NCBI GenBank assembly: GCA_963815455.1
Contig: CAWFGO010000001.1
Span: 1,344,001 to 1,408,000 of the forward strand
Direction: 5' to 3'
DNA: 64,000 bases
DNA from: an uncultured Verrucomicrobiae bacterium
GTDB lineage: Bacteria; Verrucomicrobiota; Verrucomicrobiia; Chthoniobacterales; UBA10450
The position numbers and the translations under genes were made by a program. Below, in pieces: positions 14,826 through 39,955 of the stretch (its first letter is position 1; each line of letters opens with the position of its first letter). Below the pieces are notes generated by a model, which worked only from the letters and a program-made list of their open reading frames with translations, was not told the DNA's origin and did not search any database.

Positions 14826-14888
14826 AAAACGTTAGCAGAAAGTCTCAGAGAACGCATGATCTCACTCGCCTCTTTAATTCTCGTCTCT

Positions 14889-15791: not shown

Positions 15792-15822
15792 AATGCCTCC
15801 TTTGGTCTTCGAGATTGATAAA

Positions 15823-19082: not shown

Positions 19083-19113
19083 GGGTCTCAATCCTCCTTC
19101 TCACCTGTGGAGA

Positions 19114-21630: not shown

Positions 21631-21706
21631 CACAGTTGTTCCTTTCTGAGTCTCGGTTTTGGGCACCGTCTGATCTGTCAGTGACATGGCGTGATTCACC
21701 GACTGC

Positions 21707-24275: not shown

Positions 24276-24313
24276 TTGATGCTCCCTTCACCGGAGTTTG
24301 CCTGTTGGTTCAT
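24272..24313 (-). CDS. Putative 13-aa leader peptide [13 protein letters not shown] coupled to xfp
   Basis: ATG lies at the conserved +33 position of promoter motif copy 1; its TGA overlaps the xfp ATG (ATGA). Confidence 0.35.
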
Positions 24314-24346
24314 TAATATTTCCCGAGTTTGCAGGCGGACATTTCG
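24311..24346 (-). promoter_or_regulatory. Putative ECF promoter, copy 1 (upstream of xfp operon)
   Basis: CGAAAT-GTCCGCCTGCAAACT-CGGGAAATATTA-ATG. Confidence 0.7.
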
Positions 24347-24495
24347 GGAAAGGTTGCAGTTTCGGCTGAGCGCCGTCTCACGAACTGCGTCATATAAGAT
24401 ATAGAGAGGGGGTCGGAAGGTGTTCGTTGGCCGCGCGCCAGTAGGCATCCCATCTTGCCCAGCAACCCGGGCACAGGAACTCCAGTCTGATTTTC

Positions 24496-25692
24496 TCATG
24501 ACGCTTTTCCTTTCAGAAGACGGCAAACGCTTTTTGCCATTATCAATTCTTCATCGGTGCGGATGACCCGCACAGACACCCGACTTCCGCTCTTCGAAAT
24601 TACCTCCGCGTTCGCCGCGTTTGGTTGTTGATCGAGTTCGATTCCGAGAAATCCAAGGCCTTCGCAGATGCGGGCGCGAATCGCCGGCGCGTTTTCCCCG
24701 ATCCCGCCGGTAAACGTGAGCGTGTCGAGTCCTCCGAGCGCAGCGGCGAACGCCCCGATCCATTTTTTGACCTGATAACAGAACAGCGTCACCGCATCCT
24801 CGGCGCGTGGGTCGTTGGCTTCACGCGCGAGCAAGTCGCGCATATCCGAGCTCGTCTCCGAAATACCTAACAATCCAGATTGCCGGTTAATCATGGTGTG
24901 AAATTGTTCCGCAGTCATCTGCTCGGTCTGCGCGAAAAATCCAACCAGGCCCGGATCGAGGTCGCCTGAACGCGTGCTCATCGGCAACCCTGCGGCCGGA
25001 GTGAACGCCATACTTGTGTCGACGGGCTGACCGTCACGCACCGCGGCGAGACTCGCGCCATTGCCGAGATGAGCGAGGATCACACGACCGTCCATCCGCG
25101 GCTGCGTCATGAGGTATTTGTAAGATAAGCCGTGAAAGCCGTAACGCCGCACACCTTTCGCCTCGTAACGACGCGGAATCGGCAGCAATTTTGCCACGCG
25201 CGGCATCGCGCTGTGAAACGCGGTGTCGAAACAAGCGATTTGTGGCGTGCCCGGAAGTTTCGCCGTCAAACATTCCATGAGCGCGATCTCAGCGGGCAGA
25301 TGCTCGGGATCGAACGCCCTAATACGCCGTAATTCAGTCAGCATCGCATTATCGACACGTTGCGGCTTCTCATAACGCGGGCCTCCGTGAACTACGCGAT
25401 GGCCAACGGCATTGAAGCTGGCTTTCGGAGTTGTTGTCGAAAGGCGCTCCAGCAAATGTTCCAATCCTGCGATGTGGTCGATCGCCGGGATTTCCGCTCG
25501 CTCCGTTTCCTGGCTGTCGATCTTCGTTAACGTGAACGACGCTTTCGACGATCCGATACGGTCAATGTTGCCGGTGAATGTTCGAATCAACTTCGCGCTG
25601 ATGCTGAACACGGCAAACCTCAGACTCGACGAGCCGGCATTTAGAACCAGCACTAACCTTGCTGCTGGATCATTGCTCGTTTGATTGCTCAC
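24496..25692 (-). CDS. ackA: Acetate kinase
   Basis: LNAGSSSL, GHRVVHGG, FDTAFH, YGFHGLSY, HLGNGAS, TGGIGEN, TDEE. Confidence 0.95.
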   Translation of the reverse strand: MSNQTSNDPAARLVLVLNAGSSSLRFAVFSISAKLIRTFTGNIDRIGSSKASFTLTKIDSQETERAEIPAIDHIAGLEHLLERLSTTTPKASFNAVGHRVVHGGPRYEKPQRVDNAMLTELRRIRAFDPEHLPAEIALMECLTAKLPGTPQIACFDTAFHSAMPRVAKLLPIPRRYEAKGVRRYGFHGLSYKYLMTQPRMDGRVILAHLGNGASLAAVRDGQPVDTSMAFTPAAGLPMSTRSGDLDPGLVGFFAQTEQMTAEQFHTMINRQSGLLGISETSSDMRDLLAREANDPRAEDAVTLFCYQVKKWIGAFAAALGGLDTLTFTGGIGENAPAIRARICEGLGFLGIELDQQPNAANAEVISKSGSRVSVRVIRTDEELIMAKSVCRLLKGKAS

Positions 25693-25720
25693 GGTCGCAG
25701 TTATCTACGTGATCGACACG

Positions 25721-26323
25721 TCAGCGGTTACTCAAACGGGACCGCGCGGAAGATTTCTTAGCGCTTGTTTGTATCCGTCGCAGTGGCGTCGTTGCATTCG
25801 AGAAACTGTCGCGCGCAGTCGAAAACGACGGCACGACAACCACCGGGCACCGCGCATGTCGCACCGTGCCTTCCGCGACACTGCCAATCACCGCGCGGCG
25901 AAAACCAGTCCGGCCGTGCGTCGAGATAATGATCAAATCAACCTGTTCTTTGGCGGCAGCCTCATAGATCGCGGCCGGACAGTATCCAGCAACCGCAGAT
26001 GTATCGACCGGAACACCATCGAAATCGACCCCCTTGAGGAAAGCGCGCATCTGATCACGAGATCGGCGCCACGCTGCTAGGGTGTAGTCCGACGAATTGT
26101 AATCGCCGTAGCCACTCGTCATCATAACGGGGCCGAGATCGGCTATGTGCAGGACAACGATCCGCGCACCAACTTCCTTGGCGAATCTCACCGCATACGT
26201 TAGACCTGCCAGGGAACAGTCCGAGAAGTCGACCGGAACCAAAATGTTACGAATAAGTCGATGCTGTGCGTGGTCGCGCAAAGTAGATGAGGTTTGCGGA
26301 GCTGTGAGCAGCACTTTTTTCAT
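25721..26323 (-). CDS. Universal stress protein
   Basis: ILVPVDFS...STHGRTG...[29 protein letters not shown]. Confidence 0.92.
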
Positions 26324-26480
26324 AACGCCTCCTTTTTAGTTTAGCCTACCTCCCTCGGTTGCGCGCGAAAGCCTTCGCTTGCGTTTTACCAGGCAAAAAT
26401 TGCGCGAGGATCTGGAGGATGAGATCGGAAGATTACTCTCAGGAACAATGTGATCTGTTTCGTGTGGGTGCATTGGTTGA

Positions 26481-26515
26481 CACTCTATTTCCCGAGTTTA
26501 AAGCACACCATTTCA
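26481..26515 (-). promoter_or_regulatory. Putative ECF promoter, copy 2 (upstream of usp-ackA)
   Basis: TGAAAT-GGTGTGCTTTAAACT-CGGGAAATAGA-GTG. Confidence 0.75.
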
Positions 26516-26582
26516 GAGAAATTTCGCAGCGCGGGATCAAGCTCCTCGCGAGCTTAGGCTCTTCGCTTCTTCCTTCACCGGG

Positions 26583-27032
26583 CTACTGCAAAGCTGCGTG
26601 CATCGACATCAGTTCGCTCCGGCAGGCTTCGCTAAATGCCTTGAGCGGATCATCGCCTTCGTCGTGCACGCGCCGGTGCAATTCTTCGAGCGAAACATTC
26701 GGCGCGAAATATTGCTCCACGATGAATGTGACGACCGCTTGCGCCTGCGCGAGCACCGCCTCCGAGGCGCAAAGCCGGATGCGGTTGAGCGAGGCATAGA
26801 TCGACAACAGCCTGCCCGATTTGTCGAGATTCTGCTCGAGCGAATGCATCACATGCTTCGAGCATTCGTCGATGAATTCGCCGTAAAGGGCTTCGCGTTT
26901 CTTAACCTCGGCGCGCACTTCCTCGCGCTTATTCAACGTTCTTTGCGTGACTCAGGCTGTCGCTACGCTTGCTGAGCCGCCCAACAGTGACCCGAAGAGA
27001 CCTGACCGGGCCGTAACGATTGCGGCGTTCAT
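26583..27032 (-). pseudogene. Hypothetical protein interrupted by an in-frame TGA at 26952-26954
   Basis: ATG at 27032 gives MNAAIVTARSGLFGSLLGGSASVATA*VTQRTLNKREE..., continuous with the 117-aa ORF; TGG>TGA is the simplest explanation. Confidence 0.6.
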
Positions 27033-27034
27033 GG

Positions 27035-27241
27035 CTAGGATCGCTGCGAAGCGTAAATTAGCTCCTTCGAGGCAACGGTGACCGGCTTAGCAGCAGGTGG
27101 CACCGTCTTCTCTGCCCCACCCGACTTGCGTCCGGTCCCGAGCCGTTCCACCACATAAAACGTTACCGGAACTAGAAAGATCGCGATTCCGGGGGCCTCG
27201 AGCATTCCGCCGATGACGGTTGAGCCTAAGACGCGGCGGGC
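27035..27241 (-). pseudogene. C-terminal remnant of an AcrB-type RND permease
   Basis: ARRVLGSTVIGGMLEAPGIAIFLVPVTFYVVERL resembles RND TM12; the rest of the gene is absent. Confidence 0.7.
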
Positions 27242-27341
27242 AACCGCACAACAAGACCGATTTGCGCATAGACATCGTTCTCCATGTGGGCAGCCACAGC
27301 GTGGCAAAAGTGCATGGCTGCTGTGCATTAGAACTTTCACA

Positions 27342-27755
27342 TCAGGCGGCGGCGGTTAATGCGGGAAGGTTCTCTTCGATGATTCGGATCAATTCCCGGC
27401 TAGTTACCGGCTTGGCTACGATCCGATGCCCATCAATGCGACGTCCTTCCTTTGCTTCTTCCGGTGTGACAAGCGCAGTAACGAACACGATCGGTACTCG
27501 GCGCAACCTCCAGTCGGCACCAAGCTCAGTCGCGATCTCGGCGCCGTCCAGGTCAGGCATGATTAGATCGAGAAGAATAAGATCGGGCTGGAAGCTACGC
27601 GCTGTCTCCAGGACGCGACGTGCATCGTTCTCCTCCCGCACGTGGTAGTGTGCGGTGCGTTCCAGAAGGCGCCGCGCGGTGCGCGTGAAGGCTGGGTTAT
27701 TATCCACAAGGAGGACTCGCGGACGTGTGTTACTTACTTCCGAAATTGTGTTCAT
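27342..27755 (-). CDS. Single-domain response regulator
   Basis: VLLVDNN, PDLILLDLIMPDLDG, PIVFVTA, AKP. Confidence 0.88.
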   Translation of the reverse strand: MNTISEVSNTRPRVLLVDNNPAFTRTARRLLERTAHYHVREENDARRVLETARSFQPDLILLDLIMPDLDGAEIATELGADWRLRRVPIVFVTALVTPEEAKEGRRIDGHRIVAKPVTSRELIRIIEENLPALTAAA

Positions 27756-27955
27756 ATTGGTTGACTCAGGCAGGTTGGCGCGCGTCCAGCGGTAAGCGCG
27801 CAAAGACCAGCCGCAGCTTCCGCTGCCGGTAACCCGAGATGGTTTCTAGTCCGTTTTGCCATTCGGCCATTAGTTTTCCGACCCGCGCCGGCCTGGCTGA
27901 GCGTTTTGCCGGACGAAACTACCTGAGTTCTATTCGCTTCAATTGTGCGGTTCAT
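27752..27955 (-). CDS. Small hypothetical protein (67 aa)
   Basis: Fills the gap exactly: starts 12 nt after the upstream stop and overlaps the receiver gene start by ATGA. Confidence 0.45.
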   Translation of the reverse strand: MNRTIEANRTQVVSSGKTLSQAGAGRKTNGRMAKRTRNHLGLPAAEAAAGLCALTAGRAPTCLSQPI

Positions 27956-27966
27956 AAGGCTGTGAC

Positions 27967-28350
27967 TTAGCAGGCATACTCAGCACCTGGGTTTCGCCCG
28001 CTGGCAAAGAGCTGAGTAAGCGAAGTCTGCAGCCGGCTTACCACTCGCCCGCAGCGGCGCATTCGATAGCGGAAGATGCCTAACGAGTGGTCGCCGATCA
28101 GTTCCTGGCGCAGGTGCGCCGGCGCGACGTCCATCAGCTGGCAAACATTCACGAATGAAAATGGCCAGGTAAAATCGTCGGACATGACCCATTGATAGGC
28201 ATCGAGATAGAGTTCGCGTTCGGCGCCGCTCCTGCCGCGATGGAACCGGCGCAAATCTTTTTTCGCCTGTTGCAGAATACCGGCAGCCAGCTCCTGGTGG
28301 TTTGTCTTTGATGGATAAAGGTCGGTCGCGTTCATCTTATTGATTGACAC
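27967..28350 (-). CDS. Hypothetical protein (MNATDLYPSK...WPFSFVNVC)
   Basis: Starts at motif copy 3 (GTG 28350 or in-frame ATG 28335); N-terminus paralogous to 35032..35262. Confidence 0.7.
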   Translation of the reverse strand: MSINKMNATDLYPSKTNHQELAAGILQQAKKDLRRFHRGRSGAERELYLDAYQWVMSDDFTWPFSFVNVCQLMDVAPAHLRQELIGDHSLGIFRYRMRRCGRVVSRLQTSLTQLFASGRNPGAEYAC

Positions 28351-28404
28351 CTTTATATCCCGAGTTTGCCAACAGACATTTCAGGAGACTTGTGATTTTT
28401 TGCG
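28265..28404 (-). repeat. About 140-bp diverged duplication (promoter plus first ~25 codons); partner at 35177..35316
   Basis: Colinear similarity, e.g. TTGTCTTTGATGGATAAAGGTCGGTCGC vs TTGTCTTGGATGGATAAAAGTCTGTCGC, and ACAGACATTTCAGGA in both. Confidence 0.85.
28348..28383 (-). promoter_or_regulatory. Putative ECF promoter, copy 3
   Basis: TGAAAT-GTCTGTTGGCAAACT-CGGGATATAAAG-GTG. Confidence 0.75.
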
Positions 28405-28495
28405 GTGGCGACGCCGCACGCAAATCTGGCAGGCTGTCGCCAACGGTGCCGTCGAGATCGAACACGAGCGCGGCTTGCTGCATTGAACCACCGTG

Positions 28496-28768
28496 TTACA
28501 ACAGCGGCCAAAACATCGCGAGCAGTAGCAGAATAATCACTGCGCTAAATGCCACTACCGGCCAGTTGTTCTTTGGCTTTGATGCGGCTTCGATATCGCT
28601 TAATAAACGGATCGTGGCCGGATGGTCATCGAAGATCAGGACGCGACGAATGGGCGCTGTTCCTTCACTTACTCCATCCTCGCGCGAAACGAATACAAAG
28701 ACGCGCGTGCGCGTCGTGCCTAACGAGTCGCGCGTTGTTCGAAACGGCCGTTGATCTGCGGCGCGCAT
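28496..28768 (-). CDS. Small membrane protein with a receiver-like beta1 segment and C-terminal TM
   Basis: RRVLIFDDHPATIRLL followed by hydrophobic WPVVAFSAVIILLLLAMFWPLL. Confidence 0.55.
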   Translation of the reverse strand: MRAADQRPFRTTRDSLGTTRTRVFVFVSREDGVSEGTAPIRRVLIFDDHPATIRLLSDIEAASKPKNNWPVVAFSAVIILLLLAMFWPLL

Positions 28769-28799
28769 AGTTAAAGTGAGACGCTGCGGAGTTGCATGA

Positions 28800-28835
28800 C
28801 ATCTCTATCTCACGACTTCGAAGCGCTACCTTTCA
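28800..28835 (-). promoter_or_regulatory. Putative ECF promoter, copy 4
   Basis: TGAAAG-GTAGCGCTTCGAAGT-CGTGAGATAGAG-ATG. Confidence 0.65.
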
Positions 28836-28922
28836 GCGAAATGAGTATTTCCTCTGTCGCGGCCGGTCGTTAATGATCACGCACGGCTTGCGAGACAAAA
28901 GATTGTAGTGGGTCAGTCTGAA

Positions 28923-29170
28923 TCAGAGCTCGAAAATCATTACCGCCATGAGGATGACGGCGTGAATCCAGACGAGCACCACCATTGCCAGACGGAGGTT
29001 CGCTGACGCATACGTGTCGCCCTCGACGCCTTTGTAGCCGAAGAGCATTTTCCGGCGCCGAAAGACGTGAATGCCTGCACCGATGAGGAGCAATTCCAAG
29101 AGGCCGAAGAACACCTTTAGAGCAACTGCGAACCGGCTCCTGAGCGCGCTATTGCAAGAATCTCGTTCAT
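28923..29170 (-). CDS. Small 2-TM membrane protein (5' end probably frameshifted)
   Basis: TM-RRRKMLF-loop-TM in ORF 28923..29114; an out-of-frame ATG sits at 29170. Confidence 0.55.
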
Positions 29171-29206
29171 TAGTTTAGCGGGGTAATGCCATGATCTTGT
29201 TGTTCG

Positions 29207-29473
29207 TCACGCGGACCAGATTGCGAAGAGGGTGGCGAGCGAAACCAGCATCAATACTCCCCAGACGATGAGGACAAGCTCCACGCGGATGTGCCGAACG
29301 CCATGACCGTCTTGATACTCAGCCAGCTCCGGATCGCGCTCGAATAGTTGACCGCGGCGGCGATGAATCCAGAAACCGACGCCGGCGAAAATGAGAACGG
29401 CGATGATGCTGATGACGCGGAGGGCAGGCAGACCGGCAGCGTCGAGAGTCGCAAATAGGTGAAGAGCTTGCAT
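29207..29473 (-). CDS. Small 2-TM membrane protein
   Basis: 88 aa, TM-RRRGQLF-loop-TM; starts 10 nt after the RND permease stop. Confidence 0.7.
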   Translation of the reverse strand: MQALHLFATLDAAGLPALRVISIIAVLIFAGVGFWIHRRRGQLFERDPELAEYQDGHGVRHIRVELVLIVWGVLMLVSLATLFAIWSA

Positions 29474-29482
29474 GATCTTAGG

Positions 29483-32400
29483 TTAACTGGCGACTGGCAC
29501 CGGCCCTGGTGCGCTAGTCGGAGTGGTCCGTTCTCCGTCTTCCCGGATTTTGAACCACTTGATGTAGAGCGATGGCAGCGCGATCAATGTCAACAATGTG
29601 GCCACTGCGAGACCGCCCATGATGGCGTAGGCCATGGGGCCCCAGAAGACGGTCGGCGCGATCGGCGCCATGCCCAGGATCATGGCCTGTGCGGTCAGGG
29701 TGATTGGACGGAAACGCACCAGGGAAGCTTCGACAACGGCATCCCAACCCCCGCGTCCCGCCGCTTTCTCGACTTCGATCTGGTCAACCATGATGACCGA
29801 GTTTCGGACGATCATGCCGATCAGCGCGACGGTGCCCAGCATCGCGACGAACCCCATCGGGCTTTGCGTGACCAACAGCGCAAGGACAACACCGATCACG
29901 CCAAGGGGCGCGACGCTGCAGACCAGGAACAGGCGGCTGAAACTCTGCATCTGGAACATCAGAACGGTAATCATCAGCACGACCACGATCGGGAAGACGG
30001 CGAGGACGGAGTTCTGTCCCTTCGCGCTTTCCTCGACGCTGCCGCCCTCGACGATCTTGTAGCCGACCGGCAGTTGCCGCTTCAGCTCGGAGACTTTTTG
30101 GGCAAGGCCCGCCACGGCGGTCGCTGGCAGCACGCCATCCCTGGGCTCGGCTTGAACGGTCAAGGTGGGCAGCCGGTCGCGGCGCCAGATGAGAGGCAAA
30201 TCCTGTTCGTACTCGACCTTGGCGAGCTCGCTCAATGGCACCGACCGTCCGTTCGAAAGTGGAATCTTCAGGGTCCGGATCGTCTCCAGCGACATGCGTT
30301 CATCCGCCTGGGCTCGCACTACCACGTCAATGAGGTAGATGCTGTCGCGCACCTGGGTTGACGTGATGCCAGAGACGGCGGCGTTGATCATCTGGGCGAC
30401 GGCCGCCGAGCTGAGCCCCAATTGCCTCGCCTCATCCTGGTTGACGCGGATCCGGAGCTTTCGGATCGGGTCCATCCAGTTGAAGCTAACTCTTTGGATG
30501 TCGGGGCTCGCCCCCACGATCCCGGCCAGTTTGTCGGCAAGTTCACGCACCTGATGCGGATCGCCGCCGCTGACCCGATACTGAACCGGCCAGCCCACCG
30601 GCGGCCCCAGCTCGAGCGGGAAAACCCGGCCGACCGCCTCGGGGAACTTTTCCTGAAGCGCAGACTGAAGTCGTTGCTTGACCTGGTCCCGCACCTTCAG
30701 GCTCTTGGTGACAATGATGGTTTGGGCGAAGAAATCGTTTTGGAGCTGCACATCGAGCGGCAGGTAGAATCGAATTGCGCCGCGCCCAACGTAGGAACTC
30801 CAGTGGTCGATATCGGGGTCGCTACGGAGGATTTCGTCGAGCTTTTGCGAGGCCGTATCCGTGGCATAAATCGAGGCGTCGTGCCTCAGGCGCAGATCGA
30901 GCACGAGTTCCGGCCGGTCCGACGCGGGGAAGAACTGGCTGGGCACAAACCGCGCCAGCCAGAGCGACACGCCGAAAATCGCGATCGTCACCGCCAGCGT
31001 CACTTTGGCGTGACGCATGGTAAAGAGCAGCAGGCGCCGATAAACACTGAGCACGCGCCCGCCACCTTCGTGGTGGCCCTTGCCTTCGCCCTCCTGCTTG
31101 GGGGGCTTTAAGAGCATCGTCCCAATCAGCGGCGTGAAGAGCGCGGCGACGACCCAGGAGGTGAGAACGGCGATCACCACGACCGCGAAGAGCGTGAAGG
31201 TGTATTCGCCCGCCGAACTCTTGGCGAACCCGACCGGCACGAAGCCGAGCGCTATCACCAAGGTGCCGGTGAGCCTCGGATAAGCGGTGGAGGCATAAGC
31301 AAAGATCCCCGCTTTGATCCTGTCCCAGCCATGATCCACCTTGGAGACCATGGCCTCGATGGTGATCATCGCGTCATCGACCAGCAGCCCCAGCGCGATG
31401 ATGAGCGCCCCGAGCGAGATGCGCTGCAAGTCGATCCCGCAGATCTGCATGACGATAAAAACAATGGCCAGCACGAGCGGGATGGAGGCCGCCACCACCA
31501 GGCCCGGCCGCAGGCCCAGATTCAGGAAGCTGATGACGAGAACGATCGCGATCGCCTCCCACAGCGCCTTCATGAATTCGTTCACCGCTTCTTCCACTAC
31601 CTTCGGCTGATTGGAGACCAGGAAGGTCTCGATGCCGACGGGCAGGTCCGCTTTGAGCTCCTCCATCACGTGTTCCAGGTTTTTTTCCAACGCGAGGATG
31701 TCGCCGCCGGTGCGCATCGAGAGCGCCACGCCGATGGCGTCCTTGCCGTTGACGCGGAATTTCGGCTGCGGCGGGTCGGCGTAGCCGCGCGTGATCGTGG
31801 CGATGTCGCCCAGCCTCAGCATCTTGCCGCCGAAGACGAAGTTGACCTGCTGCAAGTCCTTTTCGGATTCAAACCGTCCGGTCACATCGACGAGCACGGC
31901 CTCGTTTTTCGTCTGGATCACGCCGGAGGGAACCACGGCGTTCTGGGTGACGAGCGCCTGGATCAGTTGCATGCGGTCCATGCCGAGTTCGGCGAGGCGG
32001 TGCGTGGAGAACTCGACGTAGATCCGCTCGTCCTGGGTGCCCAGGAATTCGGCTTTGGAGACATCTTTCACTCGAAGCAGACGCGAGCGCGCCTCTTCCG
32101 CGTAATCGCGCAATTCCCGGTGACTGAAACCGTCCGCCGTGAAGCCATAGATGATCCCGTAGGTGTCGCCGAATTCGTCGTTAAAAAACGGCCCGACGAT
32201 TCCTTGCGGGAGCGTCTGCCGGATATCGCCGACTTTCTTGCGGACCTGATACCAAAGGTCCGGCACATCCTTCTTAGCGGTAGACTCGAGAAGATAGACA
32301 AAGACGGTGGACGTCCCGGCGACGGTATAGCTCTTCAAATAGTAAAGATTGGGCGTGTCTTGCAGCTTCTTCTCGATGCGGTCGGTCACCTGCTGCATGG

Positions 32401-32584
32401 TCTCGTCCTGGGTCGCGCCCGGCCAGAGCGTCACGACCACCATCGTTTTGACCGTGAATTCGGGGTCTTCATTGCGCCCCAAGTGGAGATACGCCGAGAC
32501 CCCAGCCACCAGGCAGACGATCATGAAGTAGATGACGAGCGCCTTGTGGCGGATCGCCAATTCGGTCAGATTGACGCCTTTCAT
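29483..32584 (-). CDS. RND efflux permease (AcrB/AcrD/AcrF family, MexK/TriC-like)
   Basis: 1033 aa; GPFFNDEFGD, GLLVDDAMITIE, RFRPI. Confidence 0.93.
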   Translation of the reverse strand: MKGVNLTELAIRHKALVIYFMIVCLVAGVSAYLHLGRNEDPEFTVKTMVVVTLWPGATQDETMQQVTDRIEKKLQDTPNLYYLKSYTVAGTSTVFVYLLESTAKKDVPDLWYQVRKKVGDIRQTLPQGIVGPFFNDEFGDTYGIIYGFTADGFSHRELRDYAEEARSRLLRVKDVSKAEFLGTQDERIYVEFSTHRLAELGMDRMQLIQALVTQNAVVPSGVIQTKNEAVLVDVTGRFESEKDLQQVNFVFGGKMLRLGDIATITRGYADPPQPKFRVNGKDAIGVALSMRTGGDILALEKNLEHVMEELKADLPVGIETFLVSNQPKVVEEAVNEFMKALWEAIAIVLVISFLNLGLRPGLVVAASIPLVLAIVFIVMQICGIDLQRISLGALIIALGLLVDDAMITIEAMVSKVDHGWDRIKAGIFAYASTAYPRLTGTLVIALGFVPVGFAKSSAGEYTFTLFAVVVIAVLTSWVVAALFTPLIGTMLLKPPKQEGEGKGHHEGGGRVLSVYRRLLLFTMRHAKVTLAVTIAIFGVSLWLARFVPSQFFPASDRPELVLDLRLRHDASIYATDTASQKLDEILRSDPDIDHWSSYVGRGAIRFYLPLDVQLQNDFFAQTIIVTKSLKVRDQVKQRLQSALQEKFPEAVGRVFPLELGPPVGWPVQYRVSGGDPHQVRELADKLAGIVGASPDIQRVSFNWMDPIRKLRIRVNQDEARQLGLSSAAVAQMINAAVSGITSTQVRDSIYLIDVVVRAQADERMSLETIRTLKIPLSNGRSVPLSELAKVEYEQDLPLIWRRDRLPTLTVQAEPRDGVLPATAVAGLAQKVSELKRQLPVGYKIVEGGSVEESAKGQNSVLAVFPIVVVLMITVLMFQMQSFSRLFLVCSVAPLGVIGVVLALLVTQSPMGFVAMLGTVALIGMIVRNSVIMVDQIEVEKAAGRGGWDAVVEASLVRFRPITLTAQAMILGMAPIAPTVFWGPMAYAIMGGLAVATLLTLIALPSLYIKWFKIREDGERTTPTSAPGPVPVAS

Positions 32585-33694
32585 TATTCGCCTCCCAACA
32601 GCTTTACGGTTTGACCGTCGTAGAGTTCCTGCACCCCGGCGGTCACCACCCTTTCGCCGGAATTCAGCCCGTCCGTCACGATGACAGAGTCCGGCGCATG
32701 GCGCGCAATGACGATTTCCCGCCGGTGCACGCGCTGATCCTTTGCATCGACCACCCAGACCGCGGGCTTGCTTTCGATCATCGTCAGCGCTGAAGAAGGA
32801 ATTTCGATCACCGAGTCGCCCTTCAATTTCAGGCGCCCGAGGACCGTCGCCCCCAGAAGCATTCCCGAGGGCGGATCGGTGAGTTCGACTTTGACCTGGT
32901 AGTTGCGTGTTACCGGATCGGCCTGCGGCGATATTTCACGGACCTTGCCGTCCACCTTGATCTCTGGATGGTCCGCGAGCCAAACCTCACCTTGCGCACC
33001 TAACGAGAGGCCGTCGCGCATGGCCTGGGCGGGCACGTCGAAAACGGCATCGCGCCCGGTTTGCTGCGCCACCTGCAGGACCATCTTGCCCGCGGGCACG
33101 ACCTCGCCCACCTCGGCCCCTTTTTCCGTGATAACGCCGGCGGCATCGGACTTGAGTTCCGTGTAACTCAACTGTTCTTCGGCCGATTTCAGTTTGGCTT
33201 GCGCCGCATCCAACTGCGCTTGCGACGTCTTTAGCTGGCGCAAGGCGCTATCGTATTCATTGGGGGAGATAACCAACTCGGTAAGCAACTTCTTCTGACG
33301 CCGTTCAAATGCCTCCGATTGGTCCAGCGTGGCTCTCGCGGCGGCAACGTCGGCGTGCGCGGAGTCCCGGGCGTTTCGTTCGACTTCGGCATCCAGCAGC
33401 GCCACCGTCTGCCCGGCTTCGACCTTGTCGCCGACGCCCAGTTTTCTTTCGATGACTCCTCCCGGCGATCCGGAAGGCGAGATTGACCTCGTTGCGCGCG
33501 CGCAGATGGCCGGACACGACCTTTGGGTCCCCGACCTGACGTTTTTCAACAACGACCGAGCGGACCGGGCGGACCACCGGCGGCGGCTCGGTTTTCTTTT
33601 TGCATGCGCCCAATGCCAGAAGCGCGAGGGCCATTGGGATGGCAAGGCGTCCGAGGCCGAACAATGGGGGACAAATGGAATTCAGAATTTTCAT
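32584..33694 (-). CDS. RND periplasmic adaptor (MFP) lipoprotein, +1 frameshift near 33458
   Basis: ORF 33305..33694 has lipobox LALGAC and VRPVRS...LAFRIAG; it continues in ORF 32584..33645 (VIERKLGVGD...ISPQADPVTR). Confidence 0.85.
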
Positions 33695-33852
33695 GAGCGT
33701 CTACAGGTTTCGGTTGTGTGGATGCGGATTTCCGCAAAGAGCAAAAAGCCGCAGTTCTGGAGCGTGCAGGAAACCCGTCGTGTCGCTGGCACGCAGCGGG
33801 TCGCGGGCGAGGCCCGGAAAAGGTGAATCGTCAGCGCCTTGGAGCATCGTTT

Positions 33853-34218
33853 TCATGTTTTTGCTCCAATTTTCGCGCCGGACCGAAATAGCTCGAGAGC
33901 TTGTGTCATCTGGCGTTTGTTTTGCTCGGTCAGCGGCCCGCTGCCGCTGCCGGGGATGACCCAGAAACCAAAGTCGTGGTCATGACAGTAGAAAACTTCG
34001 ATGTTTTGTTGCGGAACCGCATGGTAGAAGCTGGAGTGCGGATGGTCGGCCATTAGGCGCAGGAACTCCTCCCGCCAGGGATCACCGACGAACTCATCCT
34101 CATGCTCCTTCGCGATCTTCCTTAGTTCTTCGATGCTGATGCTTCGCAAAGACTCTAGGATGTGTTTTCGCCGCTCTTCATGGAGGGTTTCAATATTTAC
34201 GAATTCATCGAATGGCAT
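33853..34218 (-). CDS. Hypothetical protein (121 aa)
   Basis: Strong AAAGGAGG RBS; globular composition. Confidence 0.75.
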   Translation of the reverse strand: MPFDEFVNIETLHEERRKHILESLRSISIEELRKIAKEHEDEFVGDPWREEFLRLMADHPHSSFYHAVPQQNIEVFYCHDHDFGFWVIPGSGSGPLTEQNKRQMTQALELFRSGAKIGAKT

Positions 34219-34233
34219 AACGACTACCTCCTT

Positions 34234-34434
34234 TCACGATTGGTTGCAGTAGGCACATTGGTTCGCATCAAGAGGGAGACGCGCGAGAACCAGACGCAGC
34301 TTGCGCTGCTCATATCCCGCAAGCGTTTGCGGCCCACTCTGCCATTGCGCCACTAGCTTGGCGGTTCGGCCTGGCTCGAGTCCTCGCGCGGAGCCTATCA
34401 TCCACGGAGTGCCCGGTTCAATTATTTTGTTCAT
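34234..34434 (-). CDS. Small hypothetical protein (66 aa, MNKIIEPG...CAYCNQS)
   Basis: GAAAGGAAG RBS; paralogous to the C-half of 35032..35262. Confidence 0.6.
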   Translation of the reverse strand: MNKIIEPGTPWMIGSARGLEPGRTAKLVAQWQSGPQTLAGYEQRKLRLVLARLPLDANQCAYCNQS

Positions 34435-34444
34435 GACTTCCTTT

Positions 34445-34726
34445 CTATTGCTGAAGAAACGATGACTCGCGGAAGGCTGTTTGTGAAAGACCATGTTTCT
34501 TGTCTCGGTATGCCTGGCAGGCATGGTGCGCCTGTGCGCTTTGGAACTGTGACGTGTGTCTCAGTAGCTCTTCGAACCGGGACTCGTACGCATCGCAGAG
34601 GGGAGAATCGCCATTCGGTTGGACCCAATCCGGATGCTGTGCGCGGAGCGCATCGTGCATCTCGCGCTGAAGCTCGGCGTAGGCCGGAACTTCAGTCGCG
34701 GCAGTTGAGCAATGGACCGTGTTCAT
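34445..34726 (-). CDS. Small hypothetical protein (93 aa, ELQREMHDALRAQHPDWVQPNGDSPLCDAYESRF)
   Basis: ATG 2 nt after the upstream stop; tight operon packing. Confidence 0.65.
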   Translation of the reverse strand: MNTVHCSTAATEVPAYAELQREMHDALRAQHPDWVQPNGDSPLCDAYESRFEELLRHTSQFQSAQAHHACQAYRDKKHGLSQTAFRESSFLQQ

Positions 34727-34728
34727 CT

Positions 34729-34938
34729 TTAACCCCAGACGTTCTCGCGCGGCGGAGGCGGATTGAAGATCTGATTCCAACCGCGATCAGAGTTGAAGAT
34801 CGACATGTTGAGGACCAGCATCGGGTCGCCGGACCGCCTGGCGGCGACAGCCCGTTCAACCGAGGCGAGGCGCCGCAACGAAACAGGCACATGAACAGGC
34901 TGAGCGATATTACGGTGACTGGAATTTAACGTTTTAAT
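34729..34938 (-). CDS. Small hypothetical protein (~69 aa) with non-canonical ATT/ATC start
   Basis: AAAGGAG RBS at 34948-34954 followed by ATC-ATT-AAA-ACG and an open frame ending ...FNPPPPRENVWG* 2 nt before the next ATG. Confidence 0.45.
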   Translation of the reverse strand: MKTLNSSHRNIAQPVHVPVSLRRLASVERAVAARRSGDPMLVLNMSIFNSDRGWNQIFNPPPPRENVWG

Positions 34939-35031
34939 GATGGTCGTCTCCTTTCGTTAGGCTCTCCGGCGTTGAAGCCGAACAGCCCGAGAACTAAAAT
35001 CCAAAAGATCGACGTCGTGATCATGTCCGTA

Positions 35032-35262
35032 TTACTGGTTAACTGTTAAAACTGCCGAGGCGGGAGAATGGGCGAACGTTAAATGCAGTTTCCACTGCGC
35101 TTGTCCCGACATCGTCTCAATCCCGCGCTGCCATTGGCCGATTAACTTCGCGCCCGCTGACAACTGACATGGGGCGGCCTGTTTGAGAACATCAGCAGCC
35201 ATCTCCCGATGGCTTGTCTTGGATGGATAAAAGTCTGTCGCATTCATATTATTCTCTGACAC
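35032..35262 (-). CDS. Small chimeric hypothetical protein
   Basis: N-half resembles 27967..28350 and C-half resembles 34234..34434; starts at motif copy 5. Confidence 0.55.
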   Translation of the reverse strand: MSENNMNATDFYPSKTSHREMAADVLKQAAPCQLSAGAKLIGQWQRGIETMSGQAQWKLHLTFAHSPASAVLTVNQ

Positions 35263-35295
35263 CTCTATCTTCCGAGTTTGCTGACAGACATTTCA
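35260..35295 (-). promoter_or_regulatory. Putative ECF promoter, copy 5
   Basis: TGAAAT-GTCTGTCAGCAAACT-CGGAAGATAGAG-GTG. Confidence 0.75.
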
Positions 35296-35389
35296 GGAAA
35301 TCTTGCGATTTTGCTGAGCGACAGACGGCTATCGCTATAGGTAGGTTTCATCTCGTACGGCGCTACTGTTTTGGTTTTAAGTGTGGTGT

Positions 35390-35608
35390 TCATGGCCATC
35401 TCATTTCATTTCGTTGCTGGATAAAGGACAGTTCGTTCGCCGGTAAGCTCTTTTGAAAGACTTCGTTTCTTCCCTTGGCAAACCTGGAGAGCATGCTTCG
35501 TCGAACCCTAACGATCGTGCTTCGCCTGTTGAAAACACCGCCGTCCGCGGCGTTGCAGCTTGGTTCGTAATGGTAGGTGCAGGTAGGATTCATACTATTT
35601 TGTAACAC
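35390..35608 (-). CDS. Small hypothetical protein (MNPTCTYHYEP...)
   Basis: Starts at motif copy 6 with the same GTG-N12-ATG layout as copies 3 and 5. Confidence 0.5.
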   Translation of the reverse strand: MLQNSMNPTCTYHYEPSCNAADGGVFNRRSTIVRVRRSMLSRFAKGRNEVFQKSLPANELSFIQQRNEMRWP

Positions 35609-35641
35609 CTCTATTTCCCGAGTTTGGCGAATGACATTTCA
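35606..35641 (-). promoter_or_regulatory. Putative ECF promoter, copy 6 (~125 bp downstream of the kinase stop)
   Basis: TGAAAT-GTCATTCGCCAAACT-CGGGAAATAGAG-GTG. Confidence 0.75.
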
Positions 35642-35765
35642 GGAAACGTGAATTTTTTTGCGCGCTCCCGTTTCGCGCAGTTACGCGCGCGCACGAGAGC
35701 TCCGTAACGAGCAGCGCGCGTAGCAGCAGCGCATCGGGTCCAGACTTGGAAGTCTGCGCTACGAC

Positions 35766-38564
35766 TTAGTAGCGAACCGGCGGCGGATTCTTCAGCAGTT
35801 CTTCAAACCTTGGGTCCTTGCGTAAAGGATCCCAGTAAGGTGAGTATCGAAGTTCGCCTGGGTGAATTCCGCCCGGCACTTCGAGCAGGTGCGGAAGCGC
35901 GTCAATCGCAGCATCGACTTCACCCAATTGTGCCAGAGCTTTTGCGCGAAAAGCTTCGGCGATTGGCTTGAGCAGAGCGTCGTTCTCGTACTCGGCAACA
36001 CCTAGCCTCGCCTGCCCGTGCGCATTTGCTTTGTCGCCGAGCCCGGCATACGCCGCGGCAAGCTCGAGCCTCGCTCCGAGAATCGGCGGAGCGGGGAGAA
36101 CACCCCCAGGCGCAACGTCCTGAATGACGCCCTCGAACGTGACACGCGCTTCCTCATTTCGGCCCGCCCAGAGCTGACAATATCCCTGAAGCACGAGGGC
36201 AAAGATGTCCTGGGTGTCGAGCGCTTGTCCAGGACCGGGAGAGGTTGTTGCCTTCTTAGCCCAGAAGATTGCTTCGTCGAAGTTACGTTCTAACAACGCC
36301 TGATCCACGCGATGTATAAGAACCGTTTTGTCGGTAGAATCCTTGGAGATACGGGCAAGCACTTTGGCGGCTTTATCTAACCGGCCTTCCTGTTGGTATT
36401 GCTCAGCCTTGAGTGCGATAACGAACTCATCCTTGGGCGAAATCTCCAGGGCGCGGTCATATGCAGCTTGTGCCTCTGCCGCTCGGCCTAACGGCCAAAA
36501 TATATCGTTGGCAACATTGGTCCAAAGCCGGGCATTGCGTGGGTCAAGCTCGATTGCCCGCGCCAGATGAGCTTCTGCTTTTCTCCAACGACCGAGGCGA
36601 CGCTCCGCGTAAGCCGTGTATTCGCTAACCAGCGCGCTATTGGGCAAACGTTTTTCAGCTTCGCGATAGGCTTCCAGCGCCGCCGCGGGATCGTCCAACA
36701 CTCGGTAGCGATACGTGCCTTGGGCCAGCCATGCTTCGCCCAGTTCTGGGGCCAGTGCGATCGCGCGATCTGCAGTCTCCTTAACTGCCGCCGCTGAATT
36801 CACGTTCGGATCGACGCCGTGGTAGTAGAGGAAACTCCGAACAACGCTGAGTCTGGCCCAGGCTAGGGCAAAATTCGGGTCGAGTTGGACGGCTTCCGCA
36901 TAAGTCTTGGCAGCGTCCTCAAAGGAGTTGCCACCGGGTTGACTTTGCTCGATACCAACGCCACGCAGATAAGCATTGTAAGAAGCCGTAATCGCCGTCG
37001 GACGTTGCGTGCTAATCCTTTGCACGAGCTTCGCATCCAGTTGCTGTGCGATCGAATTGGCTACGTCGGTTTCGACGGCAAAAACATCATCGAGCTTGCG
37101 GTCGTAACTGCTGGCCCAGAGGTGAGCGTTGGTGCGTGTGTCGATCAGCTGCACATTCACGCGGACCTTGTCGGCTGACCTTTGCAGCGATCCTTCTAAT
37201 ACTCTCCCGACGCTAAGTTGCCGACCGACGGTTCTTAGATCGACAGGTCTGCTCTGGTAGCTCTCCGTGGACGTGCGCGCGATGACCTTCAGGTCAGCCA
37301 GACCGGCGAGCTTGGTCAGAATTTCATCCTGAATACCGATCGCGAGAAATCGATCTTCTGCGTTGGAACTAAGATTTTCGAATGGAAGAACCGCGATTGC
37401 TCGATCCAGCCCGGAGGCCGATGCCCTACGTTGAAAGAGGAGATTGGCGAGAAAGAGGAAAGCGAGTGCAAGCGCGAGTCCTACTGAGACAAGAACGGCG
37501 CGTTTCCGCCGCCGGCGGGCAGCGGGCTCGAAACGGATATGACACCGGTGAATGCTTGTCAGCAACTCGCGCGCGGTTTGCGGTCGCTTTGCTGGATCGA
37601 CAGCTAACACTGACTTCAACAACGTCACGCATCCGAGCGGGATATGCACATTCTTCAGCTGCTTCAACGGAAGCGGCTCGGCTTGCTTTGCCCGAACTTC
37701 CTCGATCGAGCGGCCGGCGAAAGGCATTTGCCCGGTAAGGAGGTACCAAAAGGTCACGCCTAACGAGTAAACGTCAGAGCGTGTGTCGATCGGTTGCTGA
37801 CCCGATTCATCGAATTGCTCCGGACTAGCGAAGGCAGGAGTTCCGATGAAACCAGCTTGCGTTCGATAGGCCGTCTCGGTTTGTGCAGCGATCACTTTTG
37901 CGATGCCGTAATCGATTATCTTAACCAACAGCTGATCGCCTGCATGCGACTCGATCATCAAGTTCGATGGTTTTAGATCACGATGGATAACTCCACATTC
38001 CTCTCCGGCGGCCAGGCCGCGCGCCGTTTGTTCCACTACTTCAAGAGCGAGGCTCAAAGGAAGTGGCCCGTCGCGTTGCACTCGCCCTTCGAGCGTTTCA
38101 CCATGGACAAGCTCCATCGCATAAAAGCATTCCCCATCCTGCTCGCCGTAATACATGACTCGCGCAACATTTGGGTGATGAATCTGCGCGGCCGCCCGGG
38201 CTTCGCGCAGGAATCGGGCACGAGCAGCAGGATCTTCCGCCAACTTTCGACTGATGACTTTAAGAGCGACCGTTGAATTGAGAATGGTGTCGCGCGCGCG
38301 ATATGTAACCGCCATTGCCCCAGAGCCGAGTATGACCGGATAACCGTCAGGATTTACTTCGACCTCGAAATGAGCGTAGCGCAACGGACCGAGTCTGGCT
38401 TGATTGCCGTCGCTTGGCCGCTCGACTTCGTGATCCTCGGCCAGAAAGCCAAAGCTAACCAGGCAACGCACACATTCGCCATCAGGACCCGGGTGGGTGA
38501 TTGATCGTCCACAGCGCGCGCAAACTCCTGCGCCAATTCCTTGCTGAGGCGCTACGACATTCAT
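35766..38564 (-). CDS. Hanks-type Ser/Thr kinase: CxxC..CxxC, kinase, TM, TolB-like domain, TPRs
   Basis: GSGAMA, VALK, HRDLKPSN, IIDYG, GTPAFASPEQ; TM after RRRRKR; AIAVLPFENLS; repeated A..LDP/LAP TPR units. Confidence 0.93.
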   Translation of the reverse strand: MNVVAPQQGIGAGVCARCGRSITHPGPDGECVRCLVSFGFLAEDHEVERPSDGNQARLGPLRYAHFEVEVNPDGYPVILGSGAMAVTYRARDTILNSTVALKVISRKLAEDPAARARFLREARAAAQIHHPNVARVMYYGEQDGECFYAMELVHGETLEGRVQRDGPLPLSLALEVVEQTARGLAAGEECGVIHRDLKPSNLMIESHAGDQLLVKIIDYGIAKVIAAQTETAYRTQAGFIGTPAFASPEQFDESGQQPIDTRSDVYSLGVTFWYLLTGQMPFAGRSIEEVRAKQAEPLPLKQLKNVHIPLGCVTLLKSVLAVDPAKRPQTARELLTSIHRCHIRFEPAARRRRKRAVLVSVGLALALAFLFLANLLFQRRASASGLDRAIAVLPFENLSSNAEDRFLAIGIQDEILTKLAGLADLKVIARTSTESYQSRPVDLRTVGRQLSVGRVLEGSLQRSADKVRVNVQLIDTRTNAHLWASSYDRKLDDVFAVETDVANSIAQQLDAKLVQRISTQRPTAITASYNAYLRGVGIEQSQPGGNSFEDAAKTYAEAVQLDPNFALAWARLSVVRSFLYYHGVDPNVNSAAAVKETADRAIALAPELGEAWLAQGTYRYRVLDDPAAALEAYREAEKRLPNSALVSEYTAYAERRLGRWRKAEAHLARAIELDPRNARLWTNVANDIFWPLGRAAEAQAAYDRALEISPKDEFVIALKAEQYQQEGRLDKAAKVLARISKDSTDKTVLIHRVDQALLERNFDEAIFWAKKATTSPGPGQALDTQDIFALVLQGYCQLWAGRNEEARVTFEGVIQDVAPGGVLPAPPILGARLELAAAYAGLGDKANAHGQARLGVAEYENDALLKPIAEAFRAKALAQLGEVDAAIDALPHLLEVPGGIHPGELRYSPYWDPLRKDPRFEELLKNPPPVRY

Positions 38565-39322
38565 GCCGTGAGAATCCGGTAAACGTAATGCAGCTCGTCA
38601 TCGATGTCCTTCGGATCGGAAACCGTGCTCGCCACTTCGGCCCGCAAGGCATGCCGATAGGTTTGGCGCAATCGCGAAAGTGAGACTCGGAAATTCTCAA
38701 CCGACGTGCCGAGTCGTTTCGCCACTTCCTCCTGATTCGGCGCCGTCGCTGTTCCACCGGCCACGAACGGCCTTAGCTCATCGACCCACTCCCGTTTGCC
38801 CTCGGCGGCGAACCTGTCGCGCACGTTCTTCCACGCGCGTGTCACGACACTGGAAGCCCACGCCAGATCGTATGAGCTGACATCGCTCAAATGAGCAGTC
38901 GCGTTCATCGCAGCCTCGGCATCGATCAGTTGATCGTCAAACGACACAATCTGACGCCCGCCGCCTCGTTTCATCGCGCTCATGCGCTCACGCTGCTTGA
39001 GCAGGAAATTTTGCAACGAGCCGAGCAGAAAGGTGCGGAGCCGTCCCTTTTCGCGATCGGCGCGGCTCAATGTCTTCTGTTTGAGTAAATGCTCGAAGAA
39101 ACCCTGGACCAGGTCTTGCGCGTCGGCGGGGGAATAGCCGCGGCGCCGAATGAATGTGTAAAGCGGCGGCCAATACATTTCACTAAACACGGCGAGCGCT
39201 TTCCGCGCCGACTCATCAGCCTCGGCCCTGCCAGCCTGCAACACGACGGTCCAGTGCGTCGTCTGGAACGGCGCTCCACCTTCTTGCAGCGTGCCCGGGA
39301 TCGGTTTCGTAAAACTCCGCAA
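38561..39322 (-). CDS. ECF sigma-70 factor of the PVC kinase-associated type
   Basis: FQTTHWTVV, YWPPLY, DAQDLVQGFF, GRLRTFL, KRGGG, sigma4 EEVAKRLGTS...SRLR; ATGA overlap with the kinase. Confidence 0.88.
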   Translation of the reverse strand: MRSFTKPIPGTLQEGGAPFQTTHWTVVLQAGRAEADESARKALAVFSEMYWPPLYTFIRRRGYSPADAQDLVQGFFEHLLKQKTLSRADREKGRLRTFLLGSLQNFLLKQRERMSAMKRGGGRQIVSFDDQLIDAEAAMNATAHLSDVSSYDLAWASSVVTRAWKNVRDRFAAEGKREWVDELRPFVAGGTATAPNQEEVAKRLGTSVENFRVSLSRLRQTYRHALRAEVASTVSDPKDIDDELHYVYRILTA

Positions 39323-39580
39323 ACTATGAATAAACCGAGACGCTTTTGCGAGACAAAAGCAATCCGCTTGGCGCCTTCGGCTATTCCGGTTCAGGAGTTG
39401 GTCACCGTCTAAATGGATCTGCGGTCTAAACGTTGCTAATTTTCTTCGTCGATCTCAAGTTCGCTGCTGCGGCTTCTATCGCCATCAATTGCGGACTACT
39501 GGTGAATCCGCTCCAATGCGAGAGCGAAGAGCCGATCGCTGTTGCGTATGTGGCGTGACCGGTATTCGCGGATTTTATCT

Positions 39581-39613
39581 GGCAGTCTCTGTTTTGCGAC
39601 GGAGAAGACTGCC
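39581..39613. repeat. Stable intergenic hairpin (REP-like)
   Basis: GGCAGTCT...AGACTGCC outer stem with an inner stem using G:U pairs. Confidence 0.45.
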
Positions 39614-39879
39614 GTCTCAAGGCCATGCTCTCAAAATCCTTCGGCCGCGTCGCCCGAGATCGGAGCCAAGACTCAAAGCGGATCAATCCGCCGCCTCACC
39701 CGGCGTCAATCAGGGGCGCAGAGGTGCCCGCCTTGATGAATGGGCTTGCCTCTTCGAAGGGAATGCGGACAGTGCGCTACGGAATCCACACGTTGTGCCC
39801 GTTTTTGTCTGAGGGATACAAAAGGGGGATACAATGGCCGAAAAAAGTGAATGAGAATGGAAGGTTTTCCCTCGTAAAT

Positions 39880-39955
39880 GCCGGCATAGCTCAGTTGGTA
39901 GAGCAGCTGATTTGTAATCAGCAGGTCGTCGGTTCGAATCCGACTGCCGGCTCCA
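39880..39955 (+). tRNA. tRNA-Thr(TGT)
   Basis: 76 nt; acceptor GCCGGCA/TGCCGGC, anticodon arm GCTGA-TTTGTAA-TCAGC, GGTTCGAATC T-arm, encoded CCA. Confidence 0.97.

Follow-up and report, generated by a model that had tools for sequence, protein, structure and literature searches.

Sigma factors of the extracytoplasmic function (ECF) type that are paired with a protein kinase have been described in group ECF43. EcfP of Vibrio parahaemolyticus has no anti-sigma factor, its gene lies directly before that of the Hanks kinase PknT, and it carries STTA in place of DAED, where phosphorylation activates it (PMC8999054). EcfK of Xanthomonas citri has QATE with a conserved Thr51 and controls nearby genes, a type VI secretion system; its kinase PknS consists of an N-terminal catalytic domain, one membrane helix and C-terminal tetratricopeptide repeats (TPRs) (PMC13147305). 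ECF43 sigma factors thus lack the DxxD motif, and their region 2.2 carries a phosphorylatable threonine (PMC8999054; PMC13147305). In the Planctomycetes-Verrucomicrobia-Chlamydiae (PVC) superphylum, groups ECF59, ECF61, ECF62 and ECF217 also have a kinase adjoining the sigma factor and no anti-sigma factor; the ECF61 promoter is given as 'not conserved' and that of ECF59 only as 'TC in -35' (PMC7826278 and its supplement). Local ECF regulons are common (PMC7776599), and a kinase-linked ECF sigma factor with few nearby promoters is an already known design. In this study, we analyse a 64,000-nucleotide stretch from an uncultured Verrucomicrobiae bacterium (assembly GCA_963815455.1, contig CAWFGO010000001.1, positions 1,344,001 to 1,408,000), called the window throughout. 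It encodes an ECF-type sigma factor and a Hanks-type Ser/Thr kinase in overlapping genes, followed by six copies of a motif, TGAAAT-N16-GGGARATA, which is very probably the promoter read by this sigma factor.

The pair resembles EcfP/PknT in gene order and in lacking an anti-sigma factor, and EcfK/PknS in the layout of the kinase: a kinase domain, a hydrophobic stretch at about residues 355-380 that, read by eye, forms one putative membrane helix, a weak FlgO/TolB-like region and TPR repeats. Unlike EcfP, the sigma factor keeps DAQD, comes from another phylum and has no Sigma70_ECF Pfam match at E 0.01, whereas ECF43 is defined by a Sigma70_ECF domain and by occurrence in Proteobacteria only (PMC7826278); carriers of the present system are mostly titled Verrucomicrobiota. 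Unlike those of EcfK, the targets predicted here are small proteins, efflux and carbon or redox genes. By their descriptions in PMC7826278, ECF59, ECF61, ECF62 and ECF217 (100% Planctomycetes), ECF283 (Proteobacteria, predicted promoter CCTT / AG) and ECF267 (other taxa as well) are set apart, and the subfamily was not found among the kinase-linked groups in the accessible part of that source. The -35 box is near-identical to that of SigW/SigX-type promoters (ECF30, ECF116: TGAAAC ... CGTC; PMC7826278 supplement), with T for C at the sixth base and a G-rich -10 box; unlike the present sigma factor, those of the SigW/SigX type use anti-sigma factors. Literature searches, which were mostly open-access and covered the supplements of PMC7776599 and PMC7826278 in part, returned no paper on the motif or on the sigma subfamily.

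The motif and its association with the sigma factor

The original prediction described six minus-strand copies of a bipartite pattern, downstream of and co-oriented with the sigma-kinase operon, the first about 125 bp after the kinase stop codon. The window indeed holds six exact matches, all on the minus strand, with none added when one mismatch was allowed, and the first lies 124 bp past the kinase stop. A looser expression (GAAA-N14..18-CGnnAnATA) returned the identical six copies, and 0 of 100 dinucleotide shuffles of the window contained any match to the pattern. A scan of the genome with a matrix, as the original prediction had proposed, singled out only these six at high score: with a matrix from 54 sites outside the window they reach 38-55 bits, the next in the 3.6-Mb genome being 19.8 and 12.9, and with a self-biased matrix from the six copies themselves they reach 48.7-62.0 against 16.7 for the best elsewhere in the genome.

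Numbered from the T of TGAAAT, the motif has conserved blocks at positions -4 to 9, 17-19, 21-30 and 35-36 in the 54-site matrix. The core described earlier was exact, and the conserved block proved longer, about -4 to +38. TGAAAT (positions 1-6) would be the -35 box and GGGARATA (positions 23-30) the -10 box, 16 nt apart, with transcription starting at about position 36. SigW promoters have the same 16-nt register to the -10 box. Position 35 is a pyrimidine in 50 and position 36 a purine in 52 of the 54 sites; a pyrimidine followed by a purine is the usual pattern of a transcription start site. The coordinates reported earlier for the copies fall 5-6 nt 3' of each core, at these predicted starts.

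The strict pattern was searched over 185,579 genomes and found in 23 stretches, 16 of them titled Verrucomicrobiota, including Candidatus Udaeobacter. The Verrucomicrobiota carriers are presumably members of the Chthoniobacterales. A sigma homologue is present in the fetched DNA of 12 stretches; three have kinase sequence only, one lies on the contig of a sigma locus, three, on short contigs or at contig ends, have no sigma gene, and four look like chance. Loci L047, L050, L054 and L056, with low or no matrix score and no linked gene, were treated as such. Among 60 relatives the pattern matched six, and genomes G012 and G060 match it without any linked gene in the DNA fetched. A pattern one base longer, not used as a test, occurs in 12 of 301 genomes and nowhere in G000, the genome of the window; one of its matches resembles a real site with a longer spacer. 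Three carrier records (L041, L048, L057) are titled Alphaproteobacteria and Pyrinomonadaceae, with a sigma factor 76-79% identical in L041 and L057, and represent either transfer or mis-binning.

For the opposite approach, starting from the sigma factor, 79 metagenome loci, the 23 motif loci, the window and 60 regions, picked for downstream length from two lists of 78 and 40 hits, were pooled, giving 151 sigma-bearing loci, or 142 after removal of identical proteins. Like that of the window, many of these sigma factors have lysine at residue 109 in region 2.4 (Lys109). The co-occurrence anticipated by the original prediction was clear: 29 of the 31 Lys109 loci with at least 3.7 kb of downstream sequence carry a site, and in 25 of the 31 the first site stands 59-143 bp past the kinase stop. 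The two misses are L092, with a truncated kinase, and L069, where the site is upstream instead. Spacing is rigid, as expected of a bipartite ECF promoter, with 55 matches at one register against 0-1 at each of four offsets (1-2 nt). Matches on the strand of the sigma gene number 105, versus three on the opposite strand, in 992 kb. Moreover, in five whole genomes picked for a Lys109 sigma factor, all ten pattern matches lie at most 16 kb from it. As in the local-regulator ECF sigmas of PMC7776599, the promoters are few and near the sigma gene; unlike there, they are mostly downstream of the kinase gene, so that searches of sigma-upstream DNA would miss the Lys109 type. No same-strand site was found upstream of the sigma gene in the window, which gives no sign of autoregulation there.

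The assignment of the protein to the ECF class (group 4) comes from its predicted region 2 and region 4, the only regions it appears to have. Its matches to Pfam Sigma70_r2 (E 1.1e-4) and TIGR02937 (E 4.3e-9) are both below cut-off. The structure model (pLDDT 73) aligns best to region 2 of Escherichia coli sigmaE on -10 DNA (Z 8.7, rmsd 3.1, 92 residues) and also to sigmaE region 4 (Z 5.6, rmsd 3.3, 71 residues), and its Atlas neighbours carry Sigma70_r2. A profile search of solved structures with the sigma alignment gave 0 matches at E 0.1. The subfamily is common, occurring in 63 of 211 genomes of this family at E <= 1e-68. Two further, more distant pairs of sigma factor and kinase (40% and 44%) are encoded in the genome, neither of them accompanied by a strong site.

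Residue 109 of the sigma factor and base 23 of the motif

Sister sigma factors of 52-68% identity keep TGAAAT and the register of the motif and differ at bases 23-25. A rescan with a matrix blind to positions 20-25, from which two frameshifted sigma factors were dropped, gave 80 loci in which a site reaches 18 bits or more. Base 23 of the best site is G in 35 of 37 Lys109 loci, T in 31 of 33 Asn109 loci and C in all ten Asp109 loci. Both Lys109 exceptions come from short contigs and lie upstream; where Lys109 loci have sites downstream, all 66 of these carry G. Residue 109 tops all 253 columns for mutual information with base 23 (1.20 of 1.49 bits, 75 loci), and all sites within one locus share the box type of that locus's sigma factor. 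In L093-L095 the focal region 2 is joined to a region 4 of the sister clade, and the GGG box is kept.

This pairing can be set beside a published specificity code, in which the residue at RpoE Asn84 sets promoter bases -13 and -12 (PMC7776599). The structural alignments end at an offset of 25 (117 to 92; 118 to 93), past an unbroken helix at 95-113, and from these ranges Lys109 is placed at RpoE Asn84. The register that takes base 23 as -13 puts +1 at position 36. In Dataset S3 of PMC7776599, Lys prefers GA (0.19) and GG (0.18) at -13/-12, Asp prefers CG (0.62), and Asn has CG at 0.40 and TG at 0.19, the highest TG of any residue. The direction of the assay thus appears to fit G, C and partly T at base 23 and points the same way as the covariation; as in the local-regulator sigmas, base -13 follows the residue placed at Asn84.

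A second pairing, of residue 101 with base 25, is kept as a lead only: A, T, R or H goes with T in 11 of 11 loci and Gly101 with T in 15 of 67, and residue 101 is outside the top eight columns for base 25. Weak sites of the TTG type stand beside LysR and efflux genes at G000:C3:27237 and C3:36937; no close Asn109-type sigma factor to match them was found in this 90%-complete genome of the window.

Weighing the promoter reading and its alternatives

Several observations weigh against a sigma factor that reads the motif through this code under control of its kinase. The search matrix was seeded from the window's own sites. Foldseek with the sigma model returned nothing at E <= 0.001, its top rows being mostly ECF sigmas. 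The register of residue 109 is contradicted by hhalign (probability 17%), in which offset 25 holds at Thr97, a gap of four residues follows and Asn105 pairs with Asn84. Sites of the Asp class have CT, which scores 0.012 in an assay that strongly favours CG for Asp, and the top assay choice of Asn is CG rather than TG (PMC7776599 Dataset S3). At the -35 box the code does not carry over: Arg212, equivalent to Arg171 by hhalign, is invariant and should favour C (0.88) over T (0.10) at -31 (PMC7776599), whereas most sites have T. Nor does the box change between Val and Thr at residue 213, or with residues 213-214. A quick tree was built from 75 of the 80 rows, excluding five short ones, and from alignments stripped of residues 92-120. 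Over it, residue 109 changes seven times, and base 23 and the joint state eleven times each, the pair changing no more often than the base by itself. The branches with good support yield only 1 (K/G), 3 (D/C) and 3 (N/T) independent contrasts, with p 0.25-1, and the tree alone therefore does not prove co-evolution; the contrasts never run in the opposite direction. Finally, 140 of 141 sigma factors have acidic residues at both DxxD positions of region 2.2, unlike the QTTA or STTA of ECF43.

If the sigma factor were a mere neighbour, the motif could be the operator of another local protein, for instance a dimer of the 122-aa protein encoded behind several sites, bound to an imperfect inverted repeat TTTCCYGA-N17-TCGGGAAA. 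One window copy is a perfect 8-bp inverted repeat, the 122-aa gene is present in 52 of the 81 loci with sites (direct search) and represents the largest cluster of first ORFs (open reading frames), 55 of 128, and the fold of the protein resembles uncharacterised phage proteins (E 3e-4). On the other side, 29 of the 81 site-bearing loci, among them L093-L095 with 3-5 sites apiece, have no 122-aa gene in the fetched DNA, the repeat is matched on average at 4.8 of 8 positions in Lys109 sites but at 3.3 of 8 in those of the Asn and Asp classes, the sites are co-oriented, and base 23 tracks a residue of the sigma factor, so that we regard an operator as very improbable. Slightly less probable still is that the copies were merely carried along in local duplications or mark the termini of mobile or recombination units, with a covariation due to shared ancestry. 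The copies ending at 28383 and 35295 lie inside a 136-bp duplication of 82% identity that extends into the downstream ORF, and the copy ending at 35641 is 77-83% like both over 59-74 bp; three of the six are thus within local duplications. Gene order is also permuted between loci (L044 and L049), and independent contrasts are few. Yet the genes behind the sites are unrelated (xfp, usp, short-chain dehydrogenase, hydrolases, DJ-1) and the spacers divergent, the box type matches the locus's own sigma factor throughout, genome G377 has the same cargo behind nine TTG sites that match its Asn109 sigma factor, and the direction agrees with a code determined elsewhere by experiment (PMC7776599). Of the earlier statement that the copies are promoters and not copied repeats, the first half is well supported, and the second applies to three of the six. 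Least probable of all, and very much so, are housekeeping sigma70 promoters of the lineage: the sites are AT-rich and directly before genes, but none of the six is among the five sigma70-like sites found in 24000-39900, only these six sites occur in 3.6 Mb, and the strict pattern is found in just a tenth of the relatives. Co-occurrence, rigid spacing, strand bias and residue-base covariation are the reasons for which the motif is taken as the promoter of the adjacent sigma factor, as first proposed; comparative support for this very probable reading is unusually specific.

How far the kinase governs the sigma factor is a separate matter. A kinase domain lies at most 2.6 kb from the sigma gene in 90 of 92 loci, 81 of the 90 having both tested catalytic motifs, and no anti-sigma gene is evident at the sigma-kinase loci, which makes gating plausible. 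We somewhat favour a membrane kinase that would sense a signal via its TPR part and set sigma activity, and consider this the weakest step of the mechanism. With DxxD intact, control is probably not exerted as in EcfP, where phosphorylation makes up for an absent negative charge. The most likely other means would be phosphorylation of the near-invariant N-terminal threonines T11, T21, T22 and T25; these and T97, S127, T233 and S235 are Ser or Thr in at least 97% of 122 sigma factors and are candidate phosphosites, some possibly structural. A smaller but substantial probability goes to a sigma factor that reads the motif while the kinase acts on another target, such as a protein of the regulon, or holds it as a membrane anti-sigma factor. 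Kinase-linked groups with DxxD may work differently (PMC8999054), and L093 and L094 keep 4-5 sites though the sensor part of their kinases is mostly lost. The kinases of L092, L093 and L094 lack most of the TolB-like/TPR part, and L092 has no site. Against such a view stand the close linkage of intact kinases, the absence of a visible anti-sigma gene, the near-invariant Thr and Ser residues, and EcfK, which keeps one acidic residue and is still phosphorylated (PMC13147305).

Genes behind the sites and their possible role

The genes of the region are collected in Table 1. In this genome the holoenzyme would fire six promoters within 11.3 kb, driving small proteins, the resistance-nodulation-division (RND) pair, a receiver protein, usp-ackA and xfp-glgP-pgm-malQ-fba-glgX; under energy or redox stress the regulon may channel glycogen into acetate and ATP. 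As predicted, copies stand ahead of genes such as xfp and usp, with the qualification that xfp is frameshifted here and that no homologue was found for the ORF behind the first copy, which gives no tblastn match in any related locus examined. The block from glgP to the LOG-family gene is separated by short gaps and is probably a continuation of the xfp transcript. The xfp frames overlap at 22755-22831; the orthologue in L014 (94-96% identical) is continuous, several related loci are also frameshifted, and the split is either an assembly error or a pseudogene.

Table 1. Features of the sigma-kinase region in the window
Feature	Coordinates	Strand	Remarks
ECF-type sigma factor P0001, 253 aa	38561-39322	-	region 2.4 Lys109; region 2.2 DxxD (DAQD); overlaps kinase gene by 4 bp
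Hanks-type Ser/Thr kinase P0002, 932 aa	35766-38564	-	Pkinase E 4.7e-43, TPR families, FlgO E 0.006
Predicted promoter, copy 1	35612-35641	-	124 bp past kinase stop; predicted start 35606; ORF 35390-35593 behind
Predicted promoter, copy 2	35266-35295	-	predicted start 35260; heads small ORFs and probably the efflux pair
Small ORF	35032-35262	-	duplicates the 122-aa protein in its first 24 codons (71%) and differs after that; probably derived from its gene by deletion
Three small conserved ORFs	34445-34780, 34234-34524, 33853-34218	-	no Pfam match
Membrane-fusion protein	32584-33645	-	Pfam-level search
AcrB-type RND transporter	29483-32584	-	Pfam-level search
Two small hydrophobic ORFs	28923-29473	-	after RND gene
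Predicted promoter, copy 3	28806-28835	-	predicted start 28800; heads conserved 90-aa ORF 28496-28768
Predicted promoter, copy 4	28354-28383	-	predicted start 28348
122-aa helical protein P0003	27967-28335	-	no known family
Stand-alone receiver-domain protein	27342-27803	-	PF00072 E 1.9e-20
Predicted promoter, copy 5	26486-26515	-	predicted start 26481; 162 bp ahead of usp
usp	25721-26323	-	
ackA	24496-25692	-	
Predicted promoter, copy 6	24317-24346	-	predicted start 24311; 41 bp ahead of xfp
Phosphoketolase xfp, two overlapping frames	21707-24275	-	split by frameshift in this assembly
glgP, pgm, malQ, class I fba, glgX, LOG-family gene	11962-21810	-	

Across genomes, an ORF was assigned behind 128 of 134 sites by an automatic choice that can skip a short first gene, and these ORFs were grouped by single-linkage clustering, which may have merged families. 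The largest cluster is the one represented by the 122-aa protein. No Pfam family was found for this protein among its Atlas matches, all 55 homologues are unnamed or hypothetical, no solved chain among 48,161 reached Z >= 8, and a predicted complex with the sigma factor scored 0.04 against a mark of 0.32. Other first genes, from a scan of 31 cluster representatives of which ten had no family, encode peroxiredoxin-, thioredoxin-, DJ-1- and glyoxalase-family proteins, NDH-2, malic enzyme, a thiamine pyrophosphate enzyme, short-chain and other dehydrogenases, hydrolases and PPK2; these gene names suggest a redox, acid or fermentation role. Of the 18 long Lys109 loci, 17 have the kinase, 14 the 122-aa gene, eight RND, four ackA and three xfp. 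Near-identical sites stand ahead of xfp in L044 and at a usp-type position in L045. L044 and L049, which form one contig, have an ackA-xfp-glgP-pgm-malQ-glgX-adh block upstream of the sigma gene, in an order permuted relative to the window, and read-through from it could thereby act as positive feedback.

The usual arrangement in genus g10 has the site ahead of the 122-aa gene, at 1.1-1.3 kb upstream of an Asn109 sigma gene. G377, a genome of a sister lineage (6% contamination), carries its nine TTG-type sites at C8:476-520 kb among 122-aa, receiver, glgP, pgm, malQ, fba and glgX genes; its only close sigma factor is of the Asn109 type and is encoded at C8:127 kb, about 350 kb away. One and the same set of genes can therefore be placed under a different code and served by a remote sigma factor. 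The motif therefore marks a local target set of this sigma factor in the present genome, as originally proposed, with a target set that varies between genomes; as a general rule, locality fails in G377.

Further features surround the module. An element with a T-run, TCGCAAA and a TATAAT-like box (39322-39370), found directly before the sigma start codon in many orthologues, is possibly a housekeeping promoter giving a leaderless message. A tRNA-Thr(TGT) gene (39880-39955) is divergent from the sigma gene, and beyond it (42200-63965) genes for hybrid PAS histidine kinases and for response regulators are densely clustered. There is no GC shift across the sigma-kinase region. No outer-membrane factor gene was identified adjoining the efflux pair (29483-33645). 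Three diverged copies of a short ORF family (27756-27876, 34239-34359, about 35060-35150) share a conserved Trp and a KLxL-type end and have no Pfam family. A 117-aa ORF without family (26583-26936), with a second copy at G000:C1:1331541-1331841, is a frequent neighbour of the module in related loci. The co-oriented carbohydrate block ends with a 2957-aa protein (2969-11842) with glucoamylase-like and GH94 domains, which we take to resemble cyclic beta-1,2-glucan synthase.

A wider picture is conceivable, though we think it rather unlikely as a whole: a three-part module of sigma factor, TPR kinase and 122-aa protein, gated otherwise than EcfP through N-terminal threonines or small-protein feedback, in which the -10 box would have been repeatedly re-coded at residue 109 (Lys/Asn/Asp), paralogues in one cell would have separate targets, and one glycogen/fermentation cargo would be re-wired between codes. 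At present, the finding supplies a sigma subfamily linked to a kinase with a specific probable promoter, with predicted start sites and with predictions of how single residues determine specificity, and offers a natural test of a specificity code that has so far come from mutants and bulk statistics. With its DxxD motif intact, the subfamily would provide a direct way to ask how kinase-linked ECF sigma factors outside ECF43 are controlled, a question left by PMC8999054.

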